From the NCBI GenBank assembly GCA_964427405.1, contig CAYRUB010000008.1:31428-95427 (forward strand): a stretch of DNA of 64,000 nucleotides, read 5' to 3'. The DNA comes from an uncultured Planctomycetales bacterium (GTDB taxonomy: Bacteria > Omnitrophota > Gorgyraeia > Gygaellales > Profunditerraquicolaceae). Each line of letters starts with the position of its first letter. The first letter of the stretch is position 1. The notes beneath the pieces are model-generated. The model searched no databases, had not been told where the DNA came from, and saw nothing but the letters and a program-made list of their open reading frames with translations. The translations under genes were made by a program, and so were the position numbers. Shown here in pieces: positions 3,731 to 63,880 of this stretch.

Positions 3731-3768
3731 TTGTTTTCTCCTTTCGAATAATCAATACAAAAATAAAA

Positions 3769-3842
<74 letters not shown>

Positions 3843-3922
3843 ATACCAATTGCGCACCGGCGCAACTCCAATAAGCGCCGGGTGCTGCATCGCTCGCTAT
3901 TATCAACTGTAAAATTTCATTT

Positions 3923-4004
3923 TGGGCGGAAGAGGATTTGAACCTCCAAGGGTTACCCCAATAGCTCCTAAGGCTATCGCGTATGCCAATTCCGCCATCC
4001 GCCC
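3923..4004 (-). tRNA. tRNA-Leu (anticodon TAG), long variable arm
   Basis: Revcomp reads GGGCGGATGGCGGAATTGGCATACGCGATAGCCTTAGGAGCTATTGGGGTAACCCTTGGAGGTTCAAATCCTCTTCCGCCCA. Anticodon loop CTTAGGA; acceptor GGGCGGA/TCCGCCC. Confidence 0.8.
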
Positions 4005-4034
4005 GGAATGTTCCTCTTTCCACCTACTAATAAC

Positions 4035-4200
4035 TTTGATAGCCTGTGGTATTGCGGAGCGCGCATTAGAAAACTTTCGGCAAATGAGTGCGAGGAATTA
4101 CGATGAGCGAAGGCCGACGCAGTGTATGGTCGGCCGAAAACGAATCGTAAACCGAAGCACTCGGCGAAAGTTTTCAGCGCGCGGAACAATACCACAGGAT
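4035..4200. repeat. R1 intergenic repeat, copy 1 (diverged), between tRNA-Leu and tRNA-Lys; imperfect ~40-nt terminal inverted repeats
   Basis: Shares aaactttcggcaaatgagtgcgaggaattacg with copy 2 (9220-9255) and cgtaaaccgaagcactcggcgaaa with copy 3 (11770-11800). Ends cctgtggtattgcggagcgcgc / gcgcgcggaacaataccacagg are inverted repeats. Confidence 0.6.
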
Positions 4201-4211
4201 ATCAAATTATT

Positions 4212-4283
4212 CTGAGCCTCCCGCGACTCGAACGCGGCACAACCACATTAAAAGTGTGGTGCTCTACCTGATGAGCTAGAGGC
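4212..4283 (-). tRNA. tRNA-Lys (anticodon TTT)
   Basis: Revcomp reads GGGCCTCTAGCTCATCAGGTAGAGCACCACACTTTTAATGTGGTTGTGCCGCGTTCGAGTCGCGGGAGGCTCA. Anticodon loop CTTTTAA. Confidence 0.75.
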
Positions 4284-9059: not shown

Positions 9060-9312
9060 TTGATTTGTCCCTTCCCCTATTACGCTCGGGGTCCTGCCGC
9101 TGAAGATGCCCCTCTTCAGCGTCACCCCTCGGAAGGCAACGCGAAAGAAACCAAACTATACGTTTATGATATTACTAATATAAGATTTCCGGCTTTTGCT
9201 GAAGGCACAATCAGAAGATTTTCGGCAGATGTGTGCGAGGAATTACGTCAAGCGTAGGCAGAATCTTAATAGCGTAAGAATACTGCAGCCGAAGCGAAAG
9301 ACGGAAAGCTTA
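9060..9312. repeat. R1 repeat copy 2 (9181-9312) with an upstream GC-rich hairpin module (9085-9150)
   Basis: taagatttccggcttttgctgaaggcacaatcagaagattttcggca ... gccgaagcgaaagacggaaagctta is nearly identical to copy 3 at 11641-11830. Perfect hairpin GCTGAAGA-tgcccc-TCTTCAGC. Confidence 0.65.
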
Positions 9313-9357
9313 TAAAATCAGTTGCAAACAGGCTTTCAGTCTGCTATGATTTTCAGC

Positions 9358-11419: not shown

Positions 11420-11830
11420 CTTGGTTTTATTCTTCACAGGGACGCTTGTTACGGCCCAGCGTGCCGTAACTGCGCTCGGGTCGGCTGACGTCGCTCTCAC
11501 TAGTCTCTGCATAGCCGGTGAACCTTGCCCGCTCCTTGCCTCCACGCCCTGCTCAGAATCAAACCAAGCCATCCGCTAAAGTATATTCAGTAAAAATGAA
11601 CCTGGTAAGTTTCGAGTGAATGTCGATTTTAACCACCCGCTAAGATTTACGGCTTTTGCTAGAGGCACAATTAAAAGATTTTCGGCATCGCTATCGTAAA
11701 TATGTGTGCAAGGTTTTACGGCGAGTGCAGGCAACACCTGATGCGTAAGGCTCCTTGCGCTGCCTGAGCGAGCCGTAAACCGTAGCACACGGCGAAAATC
11801 TTTGTGCCGAAGCAAAAAACGGAAAGCTTA
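11420..11830. repeat. Composite intergenic element: GC-rich structured module (11420-11580) plus R1 repeat copy 3 (11641-11830)
   Basis: About 60% GC in a 40% GC genome. Perfect hairpin GTTACGGC-ccagcgt-GCCGTAAC. Closing helix gccttggtttt...aaaccaagcc. R1 ends taagatttacggcttttgct... / ...gccgaagcaaaaaacggaaagctta. No ORF with coding character. Confidence 0.6.
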
Positions 11831-11875
11831 GCGCACGCGAACAATCTGCCGAAGAGCAAAATATCGCTGTTAGAC

Positions 11876-22389: not shown

Positions 22390-22423
22390 TTTACAACTTT
22401 AATATTCAGCTTGCAACTAATTT

Positions 22424-22476
22424 AATAGGGACAGCGACCATTTATTAAAGCTGACTAAATGTTCACTGTCCCTATT
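22424..22476 (-). promoter_or_regulatory. Hairpin with TAGGGACAG/CTGTCCCTA arms in the 5' region of the 642-aa gene
   Basis: aatagggacag-(31 nt)-ctgtccctatt. The same 9-mer arms recur at 30408-30435. Confidence 0.35.
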
Positions 22477-22506
22477 TAACAGGCAATTTCTGAGCTATTC
22501 TCTTAC

Positions 22507-23865
22507 TTATACCAAGCCCTGATCAAGCATGGCATCGGCTACCTTAACAAACCCGGCAATATTTGCTCCATTAACATAATTAACATGCCCGGCTTCCTTG
22601 CCATATTTAACACACTGCTCATGTATAGCAATCATTATATCATGCAACCTTTTATCCACTTCTTCGCGTGTCCAAGATAACCTGGCACTATTCTGGCTCA
22701 TTTCAAGGCCGGAAGTAGCTACGCCGCCGGCATTTGAAGCCTTGCCAGGGGCATAAAGGATCTTAGCCTTCTGGAATACTTCAACCCCTTCCGGAGTTGT
22801 GGGCATATTCGCACCCTCAGCAACAGCGATACAACCATTTTTCACTAAAGCCTTGGCATCATTCTCATCTATTTCATTCTGAGTAGCAGAAGGAAAGGCA
22901 ACATCGCATTTTACATTCCATGGCCTCTGTTTCTCAAAATATTTACAATTAAACTCTTTGGCGCATTCCTTAATCCTGCCGCGCTTAACGTTCTTCAATT
23001 GCAAAACGCAATTAAGTTCTTTCTTGTCAATACCATCTTTATCGTAAATATAACCGTCGGAATCAGACAGGGTTACCACTTTAGCCCCCATCTGTATAAG
23101 CTTCTCTACGGTATATTGAGCCACATTACCCGAACCAGATACCGCGCAGGTTTTTCCTTTTAAGGAATCGCCTTTAGTCTTAAGCATCTCTTCCGCGAAA
23201 TATACGCAGCCATAGCCGGTAGCTTCCGGTCTGATCAAACTGCCGCCCCAGTTAAGGCCTTTACCTGTAAGCACACCTGAGAATTCATTACGTAATCTCT
23301 TATATTGCCCGAATAGATAACCAATCTCGCGGCCGCCGGTGCCGATATCTCCGGCAGGCACATCAGTATTAGGTCCGATATGGCGGAAAAGCTCGGTCAT
23401 AAAACTCTGACAGAACTTCATTACTTCATTATCCGACTTACCCTTAGGATCAAAATCTGATCCGCCTTTTGCCCCGCCCATTGGTAAAGTGGTAAGCGCG
23501 TTCTTAAAAACCTGTTCAAAAGCCAGGAATTTCAATATCCCTATATTCACGCTCGGATGTAAACGTATTCCGCCTTTATAAGGGCCGATGGCGCTGTTCA
23601 TCTGGATACGAAAACCGCGGTTAATCTGAAACTCTCCCTGATCATCAAGCCAGGGAACGCGGAATATAATTGTCCTTTCCGGTTCAATCATTCTTTCCAA
23701 TATCTTGGCTTTCTGATATTTAGGGTTTTTCTCAATAAAAGGCATTACCGATTCCACAACCTCCCGCACCGCCTGATGAAACTCTGTTTCACCGGGGTTC
23801 CTCTTTGCAACTAAATCCATAAACTCTTCAGTCTTCTTTGACATTATTATTCTCCTTTCCCGCAA
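22507..23865 (-). CDS. gdhA: NADP-specific glutamate dehydrogenase
   Basis: 452 aa. KGGIRLHPSVNIGILKFLAFEQVFKNAL…PMGGAKGGSDFDPKG and GxGNVA Rossmann; hexameric GDH family. Confidence 0.9.
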   Translation of the reverse strand: MRERRIIMSKKTEEFMDLVAKRNPGETEFHQAVREVVESVMPFIEKNPKYQKAKILERMIEPERTIIFRVPWLDDQGEFQINRGFRIQMNSAIGPYKGGIRLHPSVNIGILKFLAFEQVFKNALTTLPMGGAKGGSDFDPKGKSDNEVMKFCQSFMTELFRHIGPNTDVPAGDIGTGGREIGYLFGQYKRLRNEFSGVLTGKGLNWGGSLIRPEATGYGCVYFAEEMLKTKGDSLKGKTCAVSGSGNVAQYTVEKLIQMGAKVVTLSDSDGYIYDKDGIDKKELNCVLQLKNVKRGRIKECAKEFNCKYFEKQRPWNVKCDVAFPSATQNEIDENDAKALVKNGCIAVAEGANMPTTPEGVEVFQKAKILYAPGKASNAGGVATSGLEMSQNSARLSWTREEVDKRLHDIMIAIHEQCVKYGKEAGHVNYVNGANIAGFVKVADAMLDQGLV

Positions 23866-23868
23866 GGG

Positions 23869-23947
23869 AACACCCGCGCAATTGCGCTACCTAGCGCACA
23901 CCGACGCAATACCTATTGGCGTCGAGTGATTGTCAGCGCGGGGTGTT
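23869..23947 (-). promoter_or_regulatory. Stop-codon-anchored structured element (UAACACCCCGCGC…GCGCGGGUGUU on the transcript) between nfnB and the gdhA RBS
   Basis: 11-12-bp outer stem aacacccgcgc/gcgcggggtgtt, inner GCGCAATTGCGC palindrome and cgacgc/gcgtcg hairpin. Its 5' arm includes the nfnB TAA. An AGGAGA RBS follows. A paralogous copy is at 53723-53756. Confidence 0.5.
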
Positions 23948-25364
23948 ATTTAGAAAGCTCATCTATTATTGCCCTGGAGGCTTTCTTAGCCATTCCCATG
24001 GCCTCAATAACAGTACCCTCCCCGCCAACAATATCTCCGCCGGCAAAAACACCTTTAATGGAACTTTCCATGCTTTCAGAGTCCACGATGACATCTGAAT
24101 ATTTATCGGTCTTTAGTTCCGGCGTAGCGTTGATCAGGATCTGGTTTGCTTTCAAGCCTACTGCTATCACGCATAAATCACAATCAAGTTCAAACTCGCT
24201 TCCTTCAATAATAACCGGCCTTCTCCTGCCCGAGCTATCCGGCTCGCCTAATTTTGACCTCAGGCAAATCAATTTCTTGACAAATCCCTGCTCGTCCCCG
24301 ATAAATTCTTTTGGCTGGACCAGAAATTCAAATTTTATCCCCTCTTCCCTGGCATGCTCTATTTCCAGCCGCCGGGCAGGCATTTCAATCTCCGTGCGCC
24401 GATAGATAACCGTAGTATTAAGCGCAAAGCCTTTTATCTTCTGCAGCCTTAGAGCAACCCTGGCAGAATCCATAGCGGTATTTCCACCGCCAACAATCAA
24501 AACATTCTTGCCTATATTAACCGGCGTGTGAAATTCTGGGAATTTATACGCAGACATTAAGTTTACCCGAGTAAGAAATTCATTTACCGAATAAATATTA
24601 CAAAGGTTTTCGCCGCCGATCCCCAAAAAAGAAGGCACTCCGGCTCCCAACCCCAGGAATACTTTTGAGTAACCCTGAGCAAACAATTCCTTAATCGTCC
24701 TGGCTTTTCCCACAAGGAAATTAGTAATAAAATTTACCCCTAATTTCTTCAGGTAATTTATTTCAAAATCCAGGACATCCCAGGGCAGCCTGAATGGCGG
24801 AATACCATATCTTAAGACGCCGCCGGTTTTGTGCAGGCTTTCAAAGATATCAACTTTTATGCCTTTACGGGCTAATTCTCCGGCGCAGCATAATCCTGCA
24901 GGGCCTGACCCAACCACCGCTACTTTAAATTTAGAAAACTTTTCCTCTTTCTCCACCGGAACATCCAAATTATTATTTTTACCGTAATCTCCCGCAAAAC
25001 GCTCCAGGAAATGAATATTGATTGCCTGCTCCGATGCAAAAGGCGAGCCTTTTTTAGTAAGAATGCAGGCCTTGCGACACTGATATTCAGCAGGGCAAAC
25101 CCTACCGCAAATAGAAGGGAAATTACTCTTCTCTCTGATGGCAAAATAGGCAGAACGGTAATCTTTTTGAGTAATATGGTAAATGAATTTCTTTATATCA
25201 ATACCCACCGGGCAGCCGCTGCTGCAAAGAGGATTCTTGCACTGCAGGCACCTTGAGGCTTCCAATAAAGCCTCTTCTTCAGAGTAGCCTTTAACTACCT
25301 CCTCAAAATTACCTACCCTTATTTCTGCGCTTGCCTCTCTAACTTTTACCGGTTCTTTTTTCAT
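23946..25364 (-). CDS. NfnB-like / glutamate-synthase small-subunit-like FAD/NAD(P) oxidoreductase with N-terminal 2x[4Fe-4S]
   Basis: CLQCKNPLCSSGCP ferredoxin motif and VAVVGSGPAGLCCAGELARKG FAD-binding GxGxxG. Start assigned to MKKEPVK (ATG 25364) rather than 25484, to avoid a 116-nt overlap with nfnA; 4-nt gap. Confidence 0.75.
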   Translation of the reverse strand: MKKEPVKVREASAEIRVGNFEEVVKGYSEEEALLEASRCLQCKNPLCSSGCPVGIDIKKFIYHITQKDYRSAYFAIREKSNFPSICGRVCPAEYQCRKACILTKKGSPFASEQAINIHFLERFAGDYGKNNNLDVPVEKEEKFSKFKVAVVGSGPAGLCCAGELARKGIKVDIFESLHKTGGVLRYGIPPFRLPWDVLDFEINYLKKLGVNFITNFLVGKARTIKELFAQGYSKVFLGLGAGVPSFLGIGGENLCNIYSVNEFLTRVNLMSAYKFPEFHTPVNIGKNVLIVGGGNTAMDSARVALRLQKIKGFALNTTVIYRRTEIEMPARRLEIEHAREEGIKFEFLVQPKEFIGDEQGFVKKLICLRSKLGEPDSSGRRRPVIIEGSEFELDCDLCVIAVGLKANQILINATPELKTDKYSDVIVDSESMESSIKGVFAGGDIVGGEGTVIEAMGMAKKASRAIIDELSK

Positions 25365-32310: not shown

Positions 32311-34053
32311 TTACTTTTTATTGATTGCCTTAAATTTACAAACATCAAAACATCGTCCGCACTTTACACATTTATCCTGAATTACGGAATAACCTTCTTC
32401 TTTGCCGCCGATGATTGCCTTTACCGGGCAATTATTAAAACAAATCCCGCAACGTTTACACTTATCCTCGATTATACTATAAGTTACCAGGCTGCTGCAC
32501 TTTCCCGCCGGGCATCTCTTATTTAAAATATGCTCATTATATTCCTGCTCAAAATATTTTAAAGTCGAAAGCACTGGATTTGAAGCAGTCTGGCCTAACC
32601 CGCATAAAGATGCCTTCTGCATAGCCTGAGAAATCCTGCGTAACTGCCCCAGGTCCTCCGGTATACCCTTGCCTTCGGAAATTTTCTTCAGGTAACCAAG
32701 CATCTGGAAGCCACCGATACGGCAGGGAGCGCACTTTCCGCAGGATTCCTCCACGCAGAAACCCAGGTAAAACTTAGGAATATCTACCATACAATCATCA
32801 TCATCCATAACAATCATCCCACCTGAACCCATAATCGAACCTAACTTTTGCAGGTTCTCATAATCCACCGGCGTATCTAAAAGCTCCTCGGGAATAACCC
32901 CTCCGGAAGGCCCGCCTGTCTGCACCGCTTTTATTGGCTTACCAGAGAGCGTGCCTCCACAGATATCCATTACAATCTCTCTTAAGGTTGCCCCCATAGC
33001 AATTTCTACCAACCCTGAATTTTTAACTTTCCCGGTTACCGCAAAGACCTTTGTTCCTTTCGAAGTTTGAGTACCTATTTGCGCAAAATATTTTCCGCCC
33101 TTAATAATAATTACAGGTATATTAGCCAGGGTCTCAACATTATTAATAACCGTAGGCTTACCCCACAATCCTCTTACCGAAGGATACGGCGGACGGGGAT
33201 GCGGAGTCCCTCTCTTGCCCTCTATAGATGAAATCAAAGCGGTTTCTTCACCGCAAACAAATGCGCCGGCACCCAATCTTATATCTATGTCCAAGCTGAA
33301 AGAGCTACCCAGAATATTCTTTCCCAATAGCCCATAATCATAGGCCTGTTTAATTGCTTTCTCAATTCTTTCTACTGCCAGCGGATATTCCGCGCGGATA
33401 TAAAAATACCCTTTAGAAGCCCCGATAGCAAAAGCAGCAATGATCAAACCTTCAATAACCGAATGCGGGTCGCCCTCCAGGATACTCCTATCCATATATG
33501 CTCCGGGATCTCCTTCATCAGCATTACAGATAACAAATTTCTCAGTTGATGCAACCTCACGGGCAAAATTCCATTTCATCCAAGTAGGATAGCCGGCACC
33601 GCCTCTTCCTCTTATACCGCTGATCTTTAACTCTTCAATCAACTTTTGCTGGCCTAATTCACCAAGTACTTTTTTTAAAGCCAGATAACCGCCGCAAGCG
33701 ATATATTCCTCAATACTCTCCGGGTTAATCTTGCCGCAATTGCGCAAAACAATCCGGTGCTGTTTGGCTTTAGGTTTAAAAACCAAATCCTGAATAACTT
33801 CATTTTCCTTTAAAACAGCGTCAATTATTCTTTTAATATCTGCATCTGCAACATTAACATAAGTAATTTTATCCGGGAGGACCTTAATCACCATTCCCTG
33901 ATCATACACACCGATATCCGCAACTCTAACCACCTGGATCTGATCAAGTAAATTAGTCTGGCGAAGATAATCCAACAAGCGGGTATAAAAATCCCGCGTT
34001 TTATCTTCTCCCTTTGAATCCGTATCTTTTACTAAAATAACTTTGGTGTACAT
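32311..34053 (-). CDS. hndC: NuoF-like NAD(P)H-binding flavoprotein subunit (HndC/HydB) with C-terminal 2x[4Fe-4S]
   Basis: GRGGAGYPTWMKW FMN/NADH motif; C-terminal CKRCGICFNNCP and CVKCGRCFDVC. Confidence 0.8.
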   Translation of the reverse strand: MYTKVILVKDTDSKGEDKTRDFYTRLLDYLRQTNLLDQIQVVRVADIGVYDQGMVIKVLPDKITYVNVADADIKRIIDAVLKENEVIQDLVFKPKAKQHRIVLRNCGKINPESIEEYIACGGYLALKKVLGELGQQKLIEELKISGIRGRGGAGYPTWMKWNFAREVASTEKFVICNADEGDPGAYMDRSILEGDPHSVIEGLIIAAFAIGASKGYFYIRAEYPLAVERIEKAIKQAYDYGLLGKNILGSSFSLDIDIRLGAGAFVCGEETALISSIEGKRGTPHPRPPYPSVRGLWGKPTVINNVETLANIPVIIIKGGKYFAQIGTQTSKGTKVFAVTGKVKNSGLVEIAMGATLREIVMDICGGTLSGKPIKAVQTGGPSGGVIPEELLDTPVDYENLQKLGSIMGSGGMIVMDDDDCMVDIPKFYLGFCVEESCGKCAPCRIGGFQMLGYLKKISEGKGIPEDLGQLRRISQAMQKASLCGLGQTASNPVLSTLKYFEQEYNEHILNKRCPAGKCSSLVTYSIIEDKCKRCGICFNNCPVKAIIGGKEEGYSVIQDKCVKCGRCFDVCKFKAINKK

Positions 34054-36770: not shown

Positions 36771-39700
36771 TTATTTGCCTTCTTTAACATCACACCTTAA
36801 GCATCTGCTTGCTTCAAAGCGGGCTTGTTTTAGTGATAACCCTAAAGAAACTTCCTTAAAATTATTCCGCCGTTTATTTATTTCCAGCTTTTCGCCATCT
36901 AATTTCTTTGACACCTTTGGTTCTAAGGGAACTTCAGATTTATAAGTAAATTGACGGAATAATTCGGAAAATCTTTCTCTTGAGCTTAACGCCAGGTCAA
37001 TTATCCTGGCAGCTTTCTTACCGTCAGACATTGCCTCAACTGCAGTCGCCGGCCCCATAGCTAAATCGCCGCCGGCATAAACCTTATCCAAGTTGGTTTT
37101 TAAATCAAACCTGCCTGCCTTAACTGTCCCATTCTGGTTAATCAGAATGCCACAACTCTTAATAAATCCTGCGTCTACCTTTTCTCCGATTGCTAGAATT
37201 ACAGTATCGCAAGGAATTTCAAAAACCTCATCAGTAGCTACAGGCCTTCTCCTTCCGGAAAGATCATAATCTCCTAATGTCATCCTGGTTACGATTAAAC
37301 CTTCCAATCTGCCGCGGGAATCCCCCTGTATGGTTTTAGGGCTGGCTAAAAATATAAACTTAACACCTTCAGATTCGGCCCCTTTAATCTCATCTTTATT
37401 TGCCGGCATATCTGCTTTTTCCCGCCGGTAAACAATGGTCACCTCGCTGCCGAACCTCAAGGCTGTGCGTGCGGCATCCACTGCGACATTACCGGCGCCA
37501 ATAACTACTGTCCTTTTACCGATAAGCGGATCCCTGCCGACTGCCACATCCCCCAGAAAAGCAGTGCCTGATAATACTCCTTTTAAACTTTCTCCCGGAA
37601 TACCCAAACCCATATTTTTATACGCCCCGGTTGCCAACAATACCGCATCCGACTCTTTAATCTTTTTATCTAATTCCTGTGCGCTGATTTTTTTGTTGCA
37701 TAAAATCTTTGCCCCCATCTTTTGCACAAAAGCAATTTCTTTTCTTAATACTGCCTTGGGAAGACGATATTCGGGAATACCATAACGCAAAACCCCGCCG
37801 GCTTCAGGATTAGCTTCATACACGCTCACATCATGGCCAAGCCGGCTAAGATAAAATGCCGCGGTTAAACCGCAGGGGCCTGCACCGATAATAGAAATCT
37901 TCTTGCCGGTCTTTGGCAGCCTTTCTTTGGCTAAGCGCTCAATAATCTTTGCATCTTTGCCGCCTTTATATACCTGATCCGCAATATATCTATGAATTTC
38001 GCCTTGCGAAACCGGATAATCAATATCCTCTCTGCGGCAGCGCATCTTACAATGAAAATGACAAATCCTTCCGCTCGAAGACGGAAAAGGATTATCCCGG
38101 ATAACGCAATCAAAGGCTTCGGCCAATTTGCTTTCTTTAAATAATTCCAGGAATCCCGGGATATTCATATGTAATGGGCAACTATTTTCACAAGGAGAAA
38201 CAAAAAGACCCACACATACCCCGCCGTCACAACGCTGCTCTTTGATATGTTCTTCATATTCGTGCTTAAAATATTTAAGAGTAGTCAGCACGGGATTTGG
38301 ACTGGTTTGCCCTAACCCGCAAAGGGCAGTATCTTTAATCACCGTCCCTAAATCTTCTAAACCCTGAATATCGCCTTGACTGGCTTTACCCTTTGTAATA
38401 TTAGTCAAGATATTTAAGCTTTGGGTCAGGCCTTCCCGGCAAGGCGTACATTTACCACAGGATTCGCTGGTGGTAAACTCCGTAAAATAGCGCGCCACAT
38501 CAACCATGCAATTATCATCATCCATTACCACCATTCCACCAGACCCCATGATCGCCCCCAAAGAGGCCAAGGTTTCATAATCAATCGGAGTATTAAATAA
38601 TGAAGCGGGGATACACCCTCCGGAAGGGCCGCCGCTCTGCACAGCCTTAATTTTTTTATTTGTGCCAGTTCCTGAGCCAATATTATAAATAAGTGTCTGT
38701 AAAGAAGCTCCTAAAGGTAACTCCACCAACCCGGTATTCTTGATCTTACCTACCAGGGAAAAAACTTTAGTTCCAGAGCTATTTTGAGTACCGGTCTGCG
38801 TAAACCAATCAGCGCCTTTTACCATAATAACCGGAATGTTACTCCAGGTTTCCACATTATTAATATTAGTAGGTTTATCCAGATATCCTTTTTGCGCAGG
38901 AAACGGCGGACGGGGATGCGGCCTTCCTGATTTACCCTCAAGCGAAGAAATTAATGCTGTTTCTTCTCCGCAGACAAATGCTCCCGCACCTTCTACCAAT
39001 TTAAGGTCAAAAGAAAAACCGCTATTAAATATATTACCGCCTAATAGGCCAAGCTCGCGGGCATCAGAAATTGCCTTTTTTATCCGCTCTACCGCCAAAG
39101 GATATTCTGCGCGTACATAAATAACACCGCTAGAAGCGCCCATCGCATAAGCGCCGATAATCATCCCCTCTAAAAGCATATGCGGGTCGCTCTCGCTTTC
39201 ATTACGGTTCATATACGCACCGGGATCGCCTTCATCGGCATTACAGATAATATATTTCTCCTCAGCATTCTCTTTGCGCATTAATTCCCATTTTATCCCT
39301 GTAGGAAAACCTGCTCCTCCCCTACCTCTTAGTTTTGATTTCTTCACCTCTGCAATTACAGCTTCCGGTTTAAGATCTGTTAAAACATTCAGCAAGGCCT
39401 GGTATCCGCCTACAGCAATATACTCTTCTATATCTTCGGGGTTAATCAAACCGCAATCCCTTAAAACAATTTTTTTCTGCCATTTAAAAAACGGGATTTC
39501 ATCCCAAGCGGGTATCTGTTCAAACCCCTTACCGTAAGAAACATGTCCAGTAAGATGATCCCATGTCTCAATTTTACATAAAGCCCTTTTAGGATTAATA
39601 TTACTGCTGGATATCTCCCTAACTATAGAATCTGCGTCTTTAGGCAAGACGCGGCTTAAAATAACTAACGGTTTGCCGGGCAAAGTAATATTAACTAAGG

Positions 39701-43133: not shown

Positions 43134-43192
43134 TAAAAAAACCATCTCGCATTAACATGCAAGATGGCGGCCCGACCATCTGAATCCTCCGG
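43134..43192 (-). terminator. Conserved double-hairpin plus U-tract motif (copy 1) after treT and upstream of peptide d
   Basis: Minus strand: AGATGG-tcgggccg-CCATCT hairpin, TGCAT-gtta-ATGCA hairpin, then GATGGTTTTTTT. Core catgcaagatggcggcccgaccatct is identical to the copy at 48171-48236. Confidence 0.4.
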
Positions 43193-43229
43193 AAATGCAC
43201 CCGCAGTTCCGAACCCTTATCCTAATAAA

Positions 43230-48170: not shown

Positions 48171-48236
48171 AAAACAAAAATCGCCACCCTGCATTCCCAT
48201 GCAAGATGGCGGCCCGACCATCTAACGATCCTCTGG
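48171..48236 (-). terminator. Conserved double-hairpin plus U-rich motif (copy 2) between atpC and otsA
   Basis: Same AGATGG-tcgggccg-CCATCT and TGCAT-ggga-ATGCA hairpins, then GGGTGGCGATTTTTGTTTTGTT, about 15 nt before the otsA ATG. Confidence 0.4.
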
Positions 48237-48342
48237 GAATATTTACTTATTCCCAAACCACTTATACTAAATTATATAATGCAATATACCACGATTAGAT
48301 AGAAATTCAACAAATTAATAGAGTAATATTTTATATTTATAC

Positions 48343-53695: not shown

Positions 53696-53722
53696 ATTAT
53701 CCTCCTAGCCCACAAGGGGGGC

Positions 53723-53756
53723 ACACCCGCGCAAATCCTTATAAGCGCGGGGTGTT
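53723..53756 (-). promoter_or_regulatory. Stop-codon-anchored hairpin (UAACACCCCGCGC-loop-GCGCGGGUGU) between atpB and the atpE RBS
   Basis: acacccgcgc-(12 nt)-gcgcggggtgtt. Its 5' arm on the transcript includes the atpB TAA. AGGAGGA RBS follows. Paralog of 23869-23947. Confidence 0.5.
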
Positions 53757-62127: not shown

Positions 62128-62796
62128 TTATTTAGACTTAATTGCCAAAACCTTGATAAAATCAGCGCAATCTTCTATTTTATCAGTTACGCCTTCCAGG
62201 TATTCCGCCAACTGATAAGTCAACAACAGGCTTACCGGCTCAAGCTTAGCGTGGATAATAGCCTCAATCATCGCCTTTTTCTGGTCATCTGCCTGATGCT
62301 CCAATTTGTCGATCTCAGCGCTAAGGATCATGGCATTCTTAAGTTCATTTTTAGACAATGCCGCTATCGCCTCTTTTAGCTTAGAAATAGAGCTAACAAT
62401 CAAATCTGTTCCCAAAGAAATGTTCTTTAATACGCTCTCGGGAATCTTGCCTTCAATAAAACCCAGAAGCCTGGCCGCACCATTAGTCCAATCCGCTATC
62501 TTATCCAGCGTCTTTACAAAATGCATCATATCTTCCCTGTCAGGAGGAAGAAGCATGCCCTCGGAAAGCTGATCAATCATTTTAGAGCGCAAGACATCAG
62601 CCTGATGCTCGCTCTGCCTGACGCTCTCAATAGCTTGCGTCTTAGCGTCAAGGTCACCATTAATAAAGGATTTTACCGCTTCGGCAAAGAAAGTAACCGT
62701 TTTATAAGTCTCCTCCACGTGCTTCTTGGCATCCTGCAATATTGATTGCTCTTCAGCCATACCCAACCAACCTAAAATATTACGTATCTCTCTCAT
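62128..62796 (-). CDS. DUF47 (PhoU-like, TIGR00153) phosphate-transport-associated protein
   Basis: 222 aa, all-helical, two PhoU-like repeats, adjacent to a PiT transporter. Confidence 0.7.
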   Translation of the reverse strand: MREIRNILGWLGMAEEQSILQDAKKHVEETYKTVTFFAEAVKSFINGDLDAKTQAIESVRQSEHQADVLRSKMIDQLSEGMLLPPDREDMMHFVKTLDKIADWTNGAARLLGFIEGKIPESVLKNISLGTDLIVSSISKLKEAIAALSKNELKNAMILSAEIDKLEHQADDQKKAMIEAIIHAKLEPVSLLLTYQLAEYLEGVTDKIEDCADFIKVLAIKSK

Positions 62797-62902
62797 TCTT
62801 ACCCCCTTTGCCTACAAAGGCATACCCGCGTAATTTTCGCCACGTGGCGAACACTGGCCAATTCCTACAAAGGCCAGGTGGCTAGTTAACGTGGGATCTT
62901 GG

Positions 62903-63880
62903 TTAAAATTTTACAAATATTCTGATTATCTGCAATACTATGTAACTTATCAATCCGGAAATAAAAGGAGTGGCCATCCAACAAAGAACCATATCCTTCA
63001 TTATCCGGAAATTAAGTACCCTGATCCCCCTGACTAACCCCACTCCGCAAATTGCGCCTACTATAGAATGGCTGGTAGAAACCGGAATACCAAAAACAGT
63101 ATAGAGATGCACATTAACCGCACTAGCTAGCTGTGCGGAAAGTGCCATGATCGGAAGCAGACGGGTAATTTCAGAACCAACAGTCTCAATAACCTTATAC
63201 CCCCAGGTCATTATTCCTATAACTATAGCGAAACCTCCAAAAATAACGCTCATCTTTGGAGTAAGCACGCCAACGCCAGAGATAACCCCGACTGAATTAG
63301 CCACGTCATTTGCCCCCCAGGTATATGCCACATAACAACCGCTGGCGATAACCAGGAAAAATACAATTGGTTTTATGAATTTACGGGGGAGAAAACGATA
63401 AAATAAATTTTGCAGAACCCTAAAGAATATGTAGCCTAAAACTGCCGCCCCTATCGGAGTAAAAATCCAGCAGATAAATATATCCAGCAGCATTTTCCAT
63501 TTAACCTGAGCGCCGACTGCCAGGCCCGCACCGGCAACTGCTCCCACAATAGAATGGCTTGTAGAAATAGGCATCTTCCAATAAGTAGCCAAGACCACCC
63601 ATGCGCAAGCAGCAAACGAAGCTACCAAAGCCACGTACATAGCAATCTGCTTATCCAATTGATCCAAAGGAACAATCCCCTTACCAATGGTTTTGGTTAC
63701 ATATTCACCCTGTAGATATGCTCCTAAGAAACCAAAGATTACAATCAGAATAATTGCCTGCCGTAAAGCTAAAACCTTTGAACCTACTGCCGTGCCTAAA
63801 GAATTGGCTGCGTCATTAGCGCCAATTGACCAACCAACTCCTAAACCCATAAGCAAAACTAAAACAACAAGCAATAACAT
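62903..63880 (-). CDS. pitA: Inorganic phosphate transporter, PiT family
   Basis: 325 aa, duplicated GANDAANS / GANDVANS PiT signature. AAGGAG RBS. Confidence 0.85.
   Translation of the reverse strand: MLLLVVLVLLMGLGVGWSIGANDAANSLGTAVGSKVLALRQAIILIVIFGFLGAYLQGEYVTKTIGKGIVPLDQLDKQIAMYVALVASFAACAWVVLATYWKMPISTSHSIVGAVAGAGLAVGAQVKWKMLLDIFICWIFTPIGAAVLGYIFFRVLQNLFYRFLPRKFIKPIVFFLVIASGCYVAYTWGANDVANSVGVISGVGVLTPKMSVIFGGFAIVIGIMTWGYKVIETVGSEITRLLPIMALSAQLASAVNVHLYTVFGIPVSTSHSIVGAICGVGLVRGIRVLNFRIMKDMVLCWMATPFISGLISYIVLQIIRIFVKF

Follow-up and report, generated by a model that had tools for sequence, protein, structure and literature searches.

The intergenic hairpins upstream of gdhA and atpE

The stretch of DNA analysed here (the window: 64,000 nt of contig CAYRUB010000008.1 from an uncultured Planctomycetales bacterium placed by GTDB in the phylum Omnitrophota) contains, according to Pfam, the genes of a glutamate dehydrogenase (gdhA) with NfnB/GltD-like and NfnA-like neighbors and those of the ATP synthase subunits a, c and b. 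In the spacers preceding gdhA (site A) and atpE (site B) the GC-rich arm pair ACACCCCGCGC…GCGCGGGTGT is present on the minus strand, with arms that are identical between both copies; at either site, the first A of the 5′ arm is at the same time the last A of the upstream TAA stop codon. The first-pass annotation had described two paralogous hairpins with identical arms that start at the stop codons of nfnB and atpB and precede a strong Shine-Dalgarno (SD) sequence: positions and strand agree with the present analysis, and the paralogy was borne out by the assignment of both copies to one repeat family. With moderate confidence, the two hairpins are interpreted here as copies of one modular, co-transcribed and probably mobile repeat of the Omnitrophota that resembles the repetitive extragenic palindromic (REP) sequences and bacterial interspersed mosaic elements (BIME); it does not represent a terminator, nor a regulator dedicated to atp or gdhA.

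The two-arm pattern matched twice in the window compared with 0.00 expected matches (100 shuffles), which, together with the hundreds of relatives described below, ruled out chance palindromes. The arms are imperfectly complementary, a CCCC opposite a GGG leaving a bulged C that is kept throughout the family. In both copies the arm-bearing hairpin (P1) is directly followed by a second hairpin (P2) that ends at the SD sequence and is absent from the earlier description. Site B represents the simple form of this arrangement, whereas site A is a composite that extends from the last A of the nfnB-like stop codon to 1 nt before the SD sequence (see Table 1 for coordinates). The inner palindromes that had been noticed in the gdhA copy are indeed present; their real identity is a complete second unit of P1 (TCACTCGACGC, loop CAATAGGTATT, GCGTCGGTGT) and P2 (GCGCTAGGTAGCGC) lodged in the outer loop.

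Architecture and covariation of the repeat unit

The repeat unit of approximately 46 nt consists of P1 and, immediately adjoining, P2. P1 (32-33 nt in total) is a GC-rich 10-bp stem with the base ACAC/GTGT, the conserved bulged C and a conserved loop of 11-12 nt (consensus about U-W-A-N-N-G-G-W-A-U-U); P2 is a 4-5-bp hairpin of variable sequence (e.g. TGTCTaggtAGACA, GCCCttgtGGGC, TCGTtaactACGA, GTGTttctACAC) that usually ends right at AAGGAG. A covariance model of 46 positions (R1), built from 25 uniform copies without their flanks, identified 137 units in 92 Omnitrophota loci and the window, and a second model (R2) was built from these 137 matches. In the 137-unit alignment, which was fitted to its own model so that the pairing figures are flattered, 98.8% of the paired cells pair, 14 of the 15 pairs are changed on both sides in a compensatory manner and all five P2 pairs use four to five pair types; none of 500 shuffles reached the observed pairing values, and sliding the partners by one to three columns let the pairing collapse to 21-60%. 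The covariation of P2, however, is plain in the raw sequences. Likewise, the upper-stem variants of P1 (CCGCGC, CGGCGC, CTGGCGC, CGACGC, CCAGCC, CAACGC) still pair while the bulged C stays. The structure is maintained by compensatory changes; an excess of G-U/U-G pairs over A-C/C-A mismatches on the sense strand (33 versus 11) is weak and biased by the model.

The model scores of sense matches (51 versus 22 bits and 55 versus 15 bits) were far above those of the antisense strand (15-22 bits), from which it follows that the unit is strand-asymmetric. In ViennaRNA calculations all copies folded as drawn (z-scores of -2.2 to -3.1), and the opposite strand folded equally well, which is expected of a palindrome.

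Occurrence in the phylum Omnitrophota

The wide search for the motif that had been suggested earlier was carried out as a scan for exact arms (ACACCCCGCGC-N6-66-GCGCGGGTGT) in one genome per GTDB species (185,579 genomes), and it showed a motif that is far from randomly placed with respect to genes. The exact arms, by which only the CCGCGC upper-stem subfamily is ascertained, matched at no fewer than 120 loci. Among the matches listed, 92 originate from 47 low-GC assemblies of Omnitrophota or Omnitrophica type, among them the closed Ca. Velamenicoccus archaeovorus genome and four metagenome-assembled genomes (MAGs) named "uncultured Planctomycetales"; the remaining 28 of the matches listed are bare arms without P2 or SD sequence, nearly all in high-GC genomes. 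Since Omnitrophota make up well under 1% of the GTDB species, the enrichment of the element in this phylum is very large. The repeat family exists and is confined to the Omnitrophota. As regards the window itself, the best 120 homologues of its AtpB are 74-96% identical, and every name given by the sources is Omnitrophota or Omnitrophica. The carriers labeled Planctomycetales (L004, L028, L029, L058 and L109; assemblies CAZQGT01, CAZRVK01, CAYIFW01 and CAYPRG01) are probably mislabeled Omnitrophota.

In the whole window, Rfam 15 at gathering threshold reported three tRNAs and two nhaA-I RNAs only and no family for the element, be it a riboswitch, leader, ribozyme or sRNA, and in the region 23780-24000 at E<=10 it yielded noise of at most 14.4 bits. 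A literature search on RNA motifs of Omnitrophota, on their palindromic or other repeats and on the arm sequences found nothing relevant; the two-hairpin repeat is apparently undescribed so far.

In sequence sampled without bias (the window and the atp loci) one unit is met every 16-20 kb or so: 12-14 units were counted in 238 kb of atp loci, which had been selected without regard to the element, and the window contains four sites, all on the minus strand (R2 model, filters off). Site C, a nested element with an intact inner unit, is located between the open reading frames (ORFs) 62903-63880 (TAA at 62905-62903) and 62128-62796; its outer P1 arms have decayed (GATCCCACGT / ACGCGGGTAT), and its outer P2 GCCTttgtAGGC (62821-62810) is followed by the SD sequence AAAGGGGGT (62809-62801) and the ATG at 62796. 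Site D is a simple unit between tRNA-Leu (3923-4004) and tRNA-Gly (3768-3841), the final two bases of its P2 being the first two of tRNA-Gly (overlap of 2 nt). It folds exactly as modeled (-22.4 kcal/mol, z-score -3.1), and its upper P1 stem has changed in a compensatory manner compared with sites A and B.

Genomic placement

The matches were merged into 120 sites, for which genes were placed by a crude ORF model. At 74 sites the upstream gene is on the same strand, and 33 of these sites begin between -1 and +11 nt from its stop codon; 67 of the 120 are followed by an SD sequence and an ORF start within about 45 nt. The abutment is precise: in 42 of 55 non-redundant, simple SD-associated sites P2 ends on the first A of AAGGAG (A|AGGAG), and the upstream flank of these 55 follows the pattern A/T-A/T-G/A, reading AAG in 15, TAG in seven and xTA in 12 cases. 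Two copies, site D of the window and the copy in L090, end exactly at the 5′ end of a tRNA. In spacers between co-directional genes, 63 sites are oriented in sense and eight in antisense (binomial p = 1e-11); the independent atp sample comprises 12 sense and two true antisense matches, both of the latter in L188. This sense bias is no proof of selection at the RNA level, because 49 of the 54 larger ORFs of the window are on one strand (minus), a bias that equals the element's own in strength.

The downstream genes are diverse and often classically highly expressed: they represent translation (rpsF at two sites, rpsM, rpsK, rpmE at two, rpmI), chaperones and proteases (groES, dnaK, clpP at two), DNA and nucleotide functions (ssb, ndk, dnaN), metabolism (acpP at three sites, gdhA at three, argH, purB, glyA, ilvC, P-II at two) as well as membrane and other functions (atpE, exbB/tolQ at two, a cold-shock protein gene), and transport is also represented.

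A second group of assemblies (among them Velamenicoccus, JBAZKL and JBAZTA) carries the same P1 together with P2 loops of TTTCT or CAACT. Its copies are not adjacent to SD sequences, are sometimes located upstream of promoter-like sequence and hold all antisense cases. Units of the assembly JBAZTA01 are flanked by the palindrome AAGACCCGGTCTTGG (L088 6440-6540, L038 4780-4811, L093 100-124), which suggests that the unit of this group is embedded in a larger composite repeat. The element is preferentially located in the short non-coding gap that separates a stop codon from the following SD sequence, in sense orientation, or directly before a tRNA.

Occupancy of orthologous junctions

A scan of metagenomes by AtpB alignment recovered 80 atp loci (60-96% identity) with 60 readable atpB-atpE spacers. 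In 32 of these the spacer is bare (11-18 nt, e.g. TAA-AGGAGGTTAAG-ATG, of the type TAA-AGGAGG-ATG), and in seven it is occupied by the element in several variants (upper stems CCGCGC, CCGGCC, CAACGC, CCAGCC, CTTGCCC): L125 has the same variant as the window, L121, L122 and L123 share the CCGGCC stem with a different loop and P2, L168 has CAACGC, L173 CTTGCCC, and L190 a nested unit together with a simple CCAGCC unit. A decayed remnant is left in L134, an antisense copy is present in L188, and the remaining spacers are longer and unrelated to the element. Other atp junctions, e.g. atpE-atpF, are occupied in other lineages. If the element is removed from a filled site, the empty-site layout TAA-AGGAGGNNNNN-ATG (TAA|AGGAGGATAAT-ATG) is obtained with a purine ambiguity of 1-3 nt only; in consequence, a target duplication is not clearly recognizable.

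At the gdhA junction the element occurs in three species with 100% identical P1 arms, the genomes being approximately 81-83% identical at the nucleotide level over syntenic stretches. In L053 the P2 of this site (GCCCttatGGGC) has its closing pair changed on both sides. The loop is a plain one of 12 nt in L004 and L053 and holds the nested unit in the window. A "very recent" nested insertion in the window relative to L004 was considered and tempered, since over the 8 kb of synteny the identity between the two genomes is only 81-95%.

The element comes and goes at orthologous sites; such dynamics characterize a repeat that is dispersed and exchangeable rather than a regulator conserved for a particular gene. 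A cis-regulator specific to atp or gdhA was rejected: the orthologous junction is not conserved, and the downstream genes span many classes. The idea that the atpB-atpE copy serves atp stoichiometry is contradicted by the junction itself, which 32 of 60 relatives have bare and seven have occupied by swapped variants.

The element in the transcript

Neither of the scans for U-tract terminators and for sigma-70-like promoters predicted such a signal at site A or site B; both copies lack a subsequent T-run, and no promoter was predicted between element and downstream gene. The statement of the first-pass annotation that the hairpins are not terminators is upheld by the lacking U-tract, the negative scan and the copies inside operons (atpB-atpE, rpsM-rpsK). 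The element is almost certainly co-transcribed with its neighbors.

A translational enhancer had been considered as well. However, partition-function folding of 64 sites showed no gain in SD accessibility over the empty site: the mean probability of the SD sequence being unpaired was 0.52 for the native sequence, 0.60 with the element deleted and 0.47 with the element shuffled. A role as SD insulator was rejected on the same calculations, the element performing only slightly better than random GC-rich sequence and no better than its deletion. At atpE, where pairing between the SD sequence and the C-rich side of P2 is possible, the accessibility was 0.29 with and 0.64 without the element. A CsrA-type GGA-loop site was also dismissed; GGA is present in only about 60% of the loops, with GGU or other triplets elsewhere.

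The element may have a role in RNA stabilization or processing, as the first-pass annotation had proposed. The two compact hairpins could keep stop codon and SD sequence close in space, so that operon translation or coupling would survive the insertion, and, once co-transcribed, they may act as an exonuclease barrier that stabilizes mRNA segments. Stabilizer hairpins are known from the malE-malF intercistronic REP and the ompA 5′ untranslated region of E. coli and from the STAB-SD of B. thuringiensis; like these, the Omnitrophota element is a stable hairpin in polycistronic mRNA or by an SD sequence and could block exonucleases with unequal cistron expression as the result. Unlike in these systems, its occupancy of the atp junction is not conserved and predicted SD accessibility is not improved. 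Taken together, the earlier description was right that the hairpins are real, non-randomly placed and not terminators, whereas control of atp or gdhA did not stand, an enhancer function found no support, and a repeat dispersed throughout the phylum had gone unnoticed.

Nesting, tandem arrays and a possible route of spread

Units occur singly, nested and in tandem. The loops of the Omnitrophota matches fall into two size classes of 10-12 nt and 53-61 nt. In 13 nested cases the inner unit is always positioned after the first 5-9 loop bases (TAATAAG, TTAAAG, TGATCG and others) and before (A)AATT, i.e. at the point where simple loops read …AAG|GAATT or …TCG|GAATT. Tandem copies follow an AAG after the preceding P2; the array in L034 comprises at least eight copies, and array P2s are degenerate (TCGTTAATAGTTT). 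These arrays look like a minisatellite-style amplification of the element.

All three arrangements, at stop/SD junctions, nested and in tandem, fit one rule, insertion at (T)AAG^GA. The target would be the purine motif (T)AAG^GA(G), which is common to the stop/SD overlap TAAGGAG and the element's own loop (UAAGGAAUU); its presence in the loop and after the element's own P2 would account for nesting and tandem arrays. Like REP/BIME sequences, the element may be non-autonomous and mobile, and the form in which it spreads is probably folded single-stranded DNA on which a Y1/HUH enzyme acts. Y1/HUH transposases of the IS200/IS605 and REP-associated tyrosine transposase (RAYT) types operate by single-strand "peel and paste". 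Such a mechanism, put forward here as a hypothesis, would yield insertions without target duplication, a hairpin with conserved asymmetry and a fixed orientation relative to an asymmetric target. Under this mechanism, the sense preference would arise from the lagging-strand template for co-oriented genes and from the non-template strand that is exposed during heavy transcription.

With approximate E. coli RayT and IS200 TnpA sequences as tblastn queries, one Y1_Tnp gene was found in about 1 Mb searched: it is located between murG and ftsW in L007, and its product of 163 aa matches PF01797 with 61.9 bits. The Omnitrophota RAYT-like family has 226 members, of which the best 120 are 57-98% identical and almost all 161-176 aa long; the sources name them RayT or Omnitrophota transposase. 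Gene neighborhoods differ (murG/ftsW, recA, PilZ genes, a giant gene of 45,701 residues in L204). At the loci inspected, the RAYT-like gene is bracketed by inverted repeats of its own, TAGACCGTTTCTA…TAGAAACGGTCTA, each of which is a small hairpin; these repeats are not dispersed. RAYT genes bordered by terminal inverted repeats (TIRs) that have no relation to REPs have been described by Di Nocera et al. (PMC3733652). The family is a conserved candidate for the mobilizer of the element.

Table 1. Coordinates of repeat copies, adjacent signals and RAYT-like genes; sites A to D in window positions, entries with L in positions of the respective locus from other assemblies.
Feature	Coordinates	Strand	Remarks
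Site A, upstream TAA (nfnB-like gene)	23948-23946	minus	
Site A, composite before gdhA (outer P1, nested inner unit, outer P2)	23858-23946	minus	three-way junction fold, -40.3 kcal/mol, z-score -2.5
Site A, outer P1 5′ arm	23936-23946	minus	ACACCCCGCGC
Site A, nested inner unit	23884-23929	minus	cmsearch 41.5 bits (R1), 48.6 bits (R2)
Site A, outer P1 3′ arm	23870-23879	minus	GCGCGGGTGT
Site A, outer P2 hairpin	23858-23869	minus	TCCCttgcGGGA
gdhA SD sequence	23857-23851	minus	AAGGAGA
gdhA ATG	23844-23842	minus	
Site B, upstream TAA (atpB)	53757-53755	minus	
Site B, simple unit before atpE	53708-53755	minus	44.2 bits (R1), 51.0 bits (R2)
Site B, P1	53755-53723	minus	ACACCCCGCGC / loop TTATAAGGATTT / GCGCGGGTGT; 5′ arm 53755-53745, 3′ arm 53732-53723
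Site B, P2	53722-53708	minus	GCCCcccttgtGGGC
atpE SD sequence	53707-53700	minus	TAGGAGGA
atpE ATG	53695	minus	
Site C, nested element	62810-62898	minus	intact inner unit 62881-62837; 27.8 bits (R1), 45.3 bits (R2)
Site D, simple unit	3840-3885	minus	GCACCCGGCGC / TTATTGGAGTT / GCGCCGGTGC + GCAATtggtATTGC; 49.4 bits (R1), 55.4 bits (R2)
Tandem array, L034	5947-6354	minus	period ~45-46 nt
Tandem array, L026	988-1319	plus	period ~45-46 nt
Tandem array, L029	~800-900	minus	period ~45-46 nt
RAYT-like gene, L007	5651-6142	minus	
RAYT-like gene, L201/L202	2501-2992		
RAYT-like gene, L203	1783-2274		
RAYT-like gene, L204	2501-2992		

Comparison with known repeats and alternative interpretations

The element shares with the REP/BIME systems (E. 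coli palindromic units, Pseudomonas REPs and REPINs) the short, imperfect and asymmetric palindrome (20-40 nt), the extragenic location in many copies, the position mostly between co-directional genes just downstream of coding regions, the mosaic of modules and the co-transcription (PMC3733652). As in REP/RAYT systems, the host phylum possesses a conserved single-domain Y1 transposase annotated as RayT. It differs from REPs in the fixed order of P1 and P2, in a P1 core that is phylum-wide rather than restricted to a species or genus, in the SD abutment and in self-nesting. BOX elements of Streptococcus pneumoniae, enterobacterial repetitive intergenic consensus (ERIC) sequences and Correia elements (CREE) are modular intergenic repeats of 100-300 bp that include tandem modules, form mRNA hairpins, lack a transposase of their own and have reported effects on neighboring expression and mRNA processing; Correia and ERIC elements have TIRs and target duplications such as TA. 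The Omnitrophota unit resembles them in its modularity, the tandem reiteration of one module and the mRNA hairpins; in contrast, it is 46 nt long, has no layout of TIRs plus target-site duplications and shares no sequence with them. A miniature inverted-repeat transposable element was rejected: the ends (ACACC… and …P2) are not mutual inverted repeats, and the junctions show only the ambiguity of 1-3 nt.

Several points weigh against the interpretation as a mobile repeat of REP/BIME type. Most REP families carry a GTAG or CGTC tag (PMC3733652); the element has neither, a G at position -4 being found in eight of the 55 sites and CGTC in none. The RAYT-like genes inspected are flanked by inverted repeats unrelated to the element, and a model search found no unit within 2.5 kb of the RAYT-like gene at four distinct loci; both transposition and an action of this enzyme on the element are hypothetical. 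Insertion specific to one replication strand would generate the same sense bias as selection at the RNA level, and the exact-match scan is confined to one upper-stem subfamily. Furthermore, a host function with recognition by a trans-acting factor would account at least as well as selfish spread for the conservation of P1 base, bulge and loop in many species, for the identity of the P1 arms at gdhA in genomes as distant as those mentioned and for the enrichment before highly expressed genes and tRNAs.

These latter features lead to a possible, if rather doubtful, alternative: a dedicated cis-acting RNA module, in which a conserved protein or the ribosome would read the bulged-C P1 and its loop in 5′ untranslated or intercistronic RNA and the module would either direct endonucleolytic processing, with a 5′ hairpin left to protect the downstream cistron or tRNA precursor, or set the translation rate for a group of highly expressed genes, the spread of the element being secondary. 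In its favor, the 47 assemblies share conserved positions in the P1 base, bulge and loop, P2 abuts the SD sequence in 42 of 55 sites or, in two copies, ends exactly at a tRNA, many downstream genes are highly expressed (acpP, rpsF, groES, dnaK, atpE, gdhA and others), and the junctions at gdhA, rpsF, clpP and rpmE are occupied in different species with compensatory changes in P2. The G-U excess on the sense strand would point in the same direction, but it is biased by the alignment model. Moreover, the occupancy is patchy, with variants swapped at atpB-atpE among close relatives, tandem arrays and self-nesting follow no obvious regulatory logic, and copies of the second assembly group are not associated with SD sequences and can be antisense; folding predicts no gain in SD accessibility, and no candidate binding protein was identified.

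Rather unlikely is a combination of mobility and function, in which a self-propagating RNA cassette would target the stop/SD overlap with a loop that mimics its target, and the bulged-C hairpin would be recognized by a conserved factor of the Omnitrophota (30S subunit, RNA-binding protein or endoribonuclease) in order to process, stabilize or co-ordinate the translation of highly expressed mRNAs and tRNA precursors throughout the phylum.

A site acting at the DNA level, whose transcript would be irrelevant, is improbable. It could be bound by a nucleoid protein, gyrase or integration host factor, as BIMEs are, or constitute a folded recombination site of attC type: the palindrome of the element is imperfect, includes an extrahelical base and a centre of variable length and is placed directly after ORFs, superficially like an integron attC, and both strands fold equally well. 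However, a duplex binding site leaves the strand-asymmetric order of P1 and P2 and the exact SD abutment unexplained, and an integron attC was rejected on account of the stem base ACAC/GTGT in place of the R″/R′ core sites (RYYYAAC, GTTRRRY), the flanking core housekeeping genes in conserved operons instead of cassettes, and copies that are scattered every 16-20 kb or so and not arrayed. An intrinsic terminator or attenuator of the upstream gene that functions without a U-tract is hardly credible: although the stable GC-rich hairpin directly follows stop codons, and promoter-like sequence after some copies of the second assembly group would place them at the 3′ end of a transcription unit, the U-tract is missing with negative scans at both sites, copies are present within obligatorily co-expressed operons (atpB-atpE, rpsM-rpsK) directly before an SD sequence or a tRNA, and no promoter is predicted between element and downstream gene.

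Other features of the window

The two nhaA-I RNAs (RF03057, Na+ riboswitch; gathering score 37) match at 43162-43216 (48.9 bits) and 48204-48260 (48.7 bits), both on the minus strand, and constitute at the same time the direct repeat D15; the second is located immediately beyond the atp operon's 3′ end and presumably precedes a downstream minus-strand gene. Just downstream of the gdhA stop codon at 22507, an inverted repeat is present at 22421-22479 (24-nt arms with 88% complementarity, 11-nt gap; TTTAATAGGGACAGCGACCATTTA / TAAATGTTCACTGTCCCTATTTAA), at which the simple scan calls no U-tract terminator; it could be the 3′ hairpin of gdhA. Another intergenic repeat, unrelated to the element and about 130-200 nt long, exists in three copies (4005-4212, ~9175-9320 and ~11640-11835) with the common blocks TTTCGGCA-ATGTGTGCGAGGAATTACG and CGTAAACCG-AGCAC-CGGCGAAAA; the spacer between tRNA-Lys and tRNA-Leu is taken up by one copy, which has inverted ends of 30 nt (4035-4064 / 4177-4206), and no Rfam match was obtained for this repeat at E<=0.1. 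The paralogous segments 32528-33543 and 38245-39260, which are 5,717 nt apart and consist of blocks of 72-88% identity (D1, D2, D8), probably represent a duplicated gene pair.

Implications

Omnitrophota are an uncultured phylum of ultra-small, possibly predatory bacteria. If the interpretation as a REP/BIME-like repeat is true, they carry structured interspersed repeats throughout the phylum, and these would provide a system for studying how REP-like repeats spread and choose their targets, with a sharp stop/SD target, self-nesting that marks the motif and a RAYT-like candidate enzyme. For annotation, the repeat would explain many GC-rich hairpins in Omnitrophota operons that can be mistaken for terminators, riboswitches or gene-specific regulators, and the covariance model would serve as a sequence and structure marker for the binning and taxonomic assignment of Omnitrophota contigs. 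Should the transcript of the element have a function, the repeat would be one of the rare mobile elements by which translation-initiation regions are shaped genome-wide.

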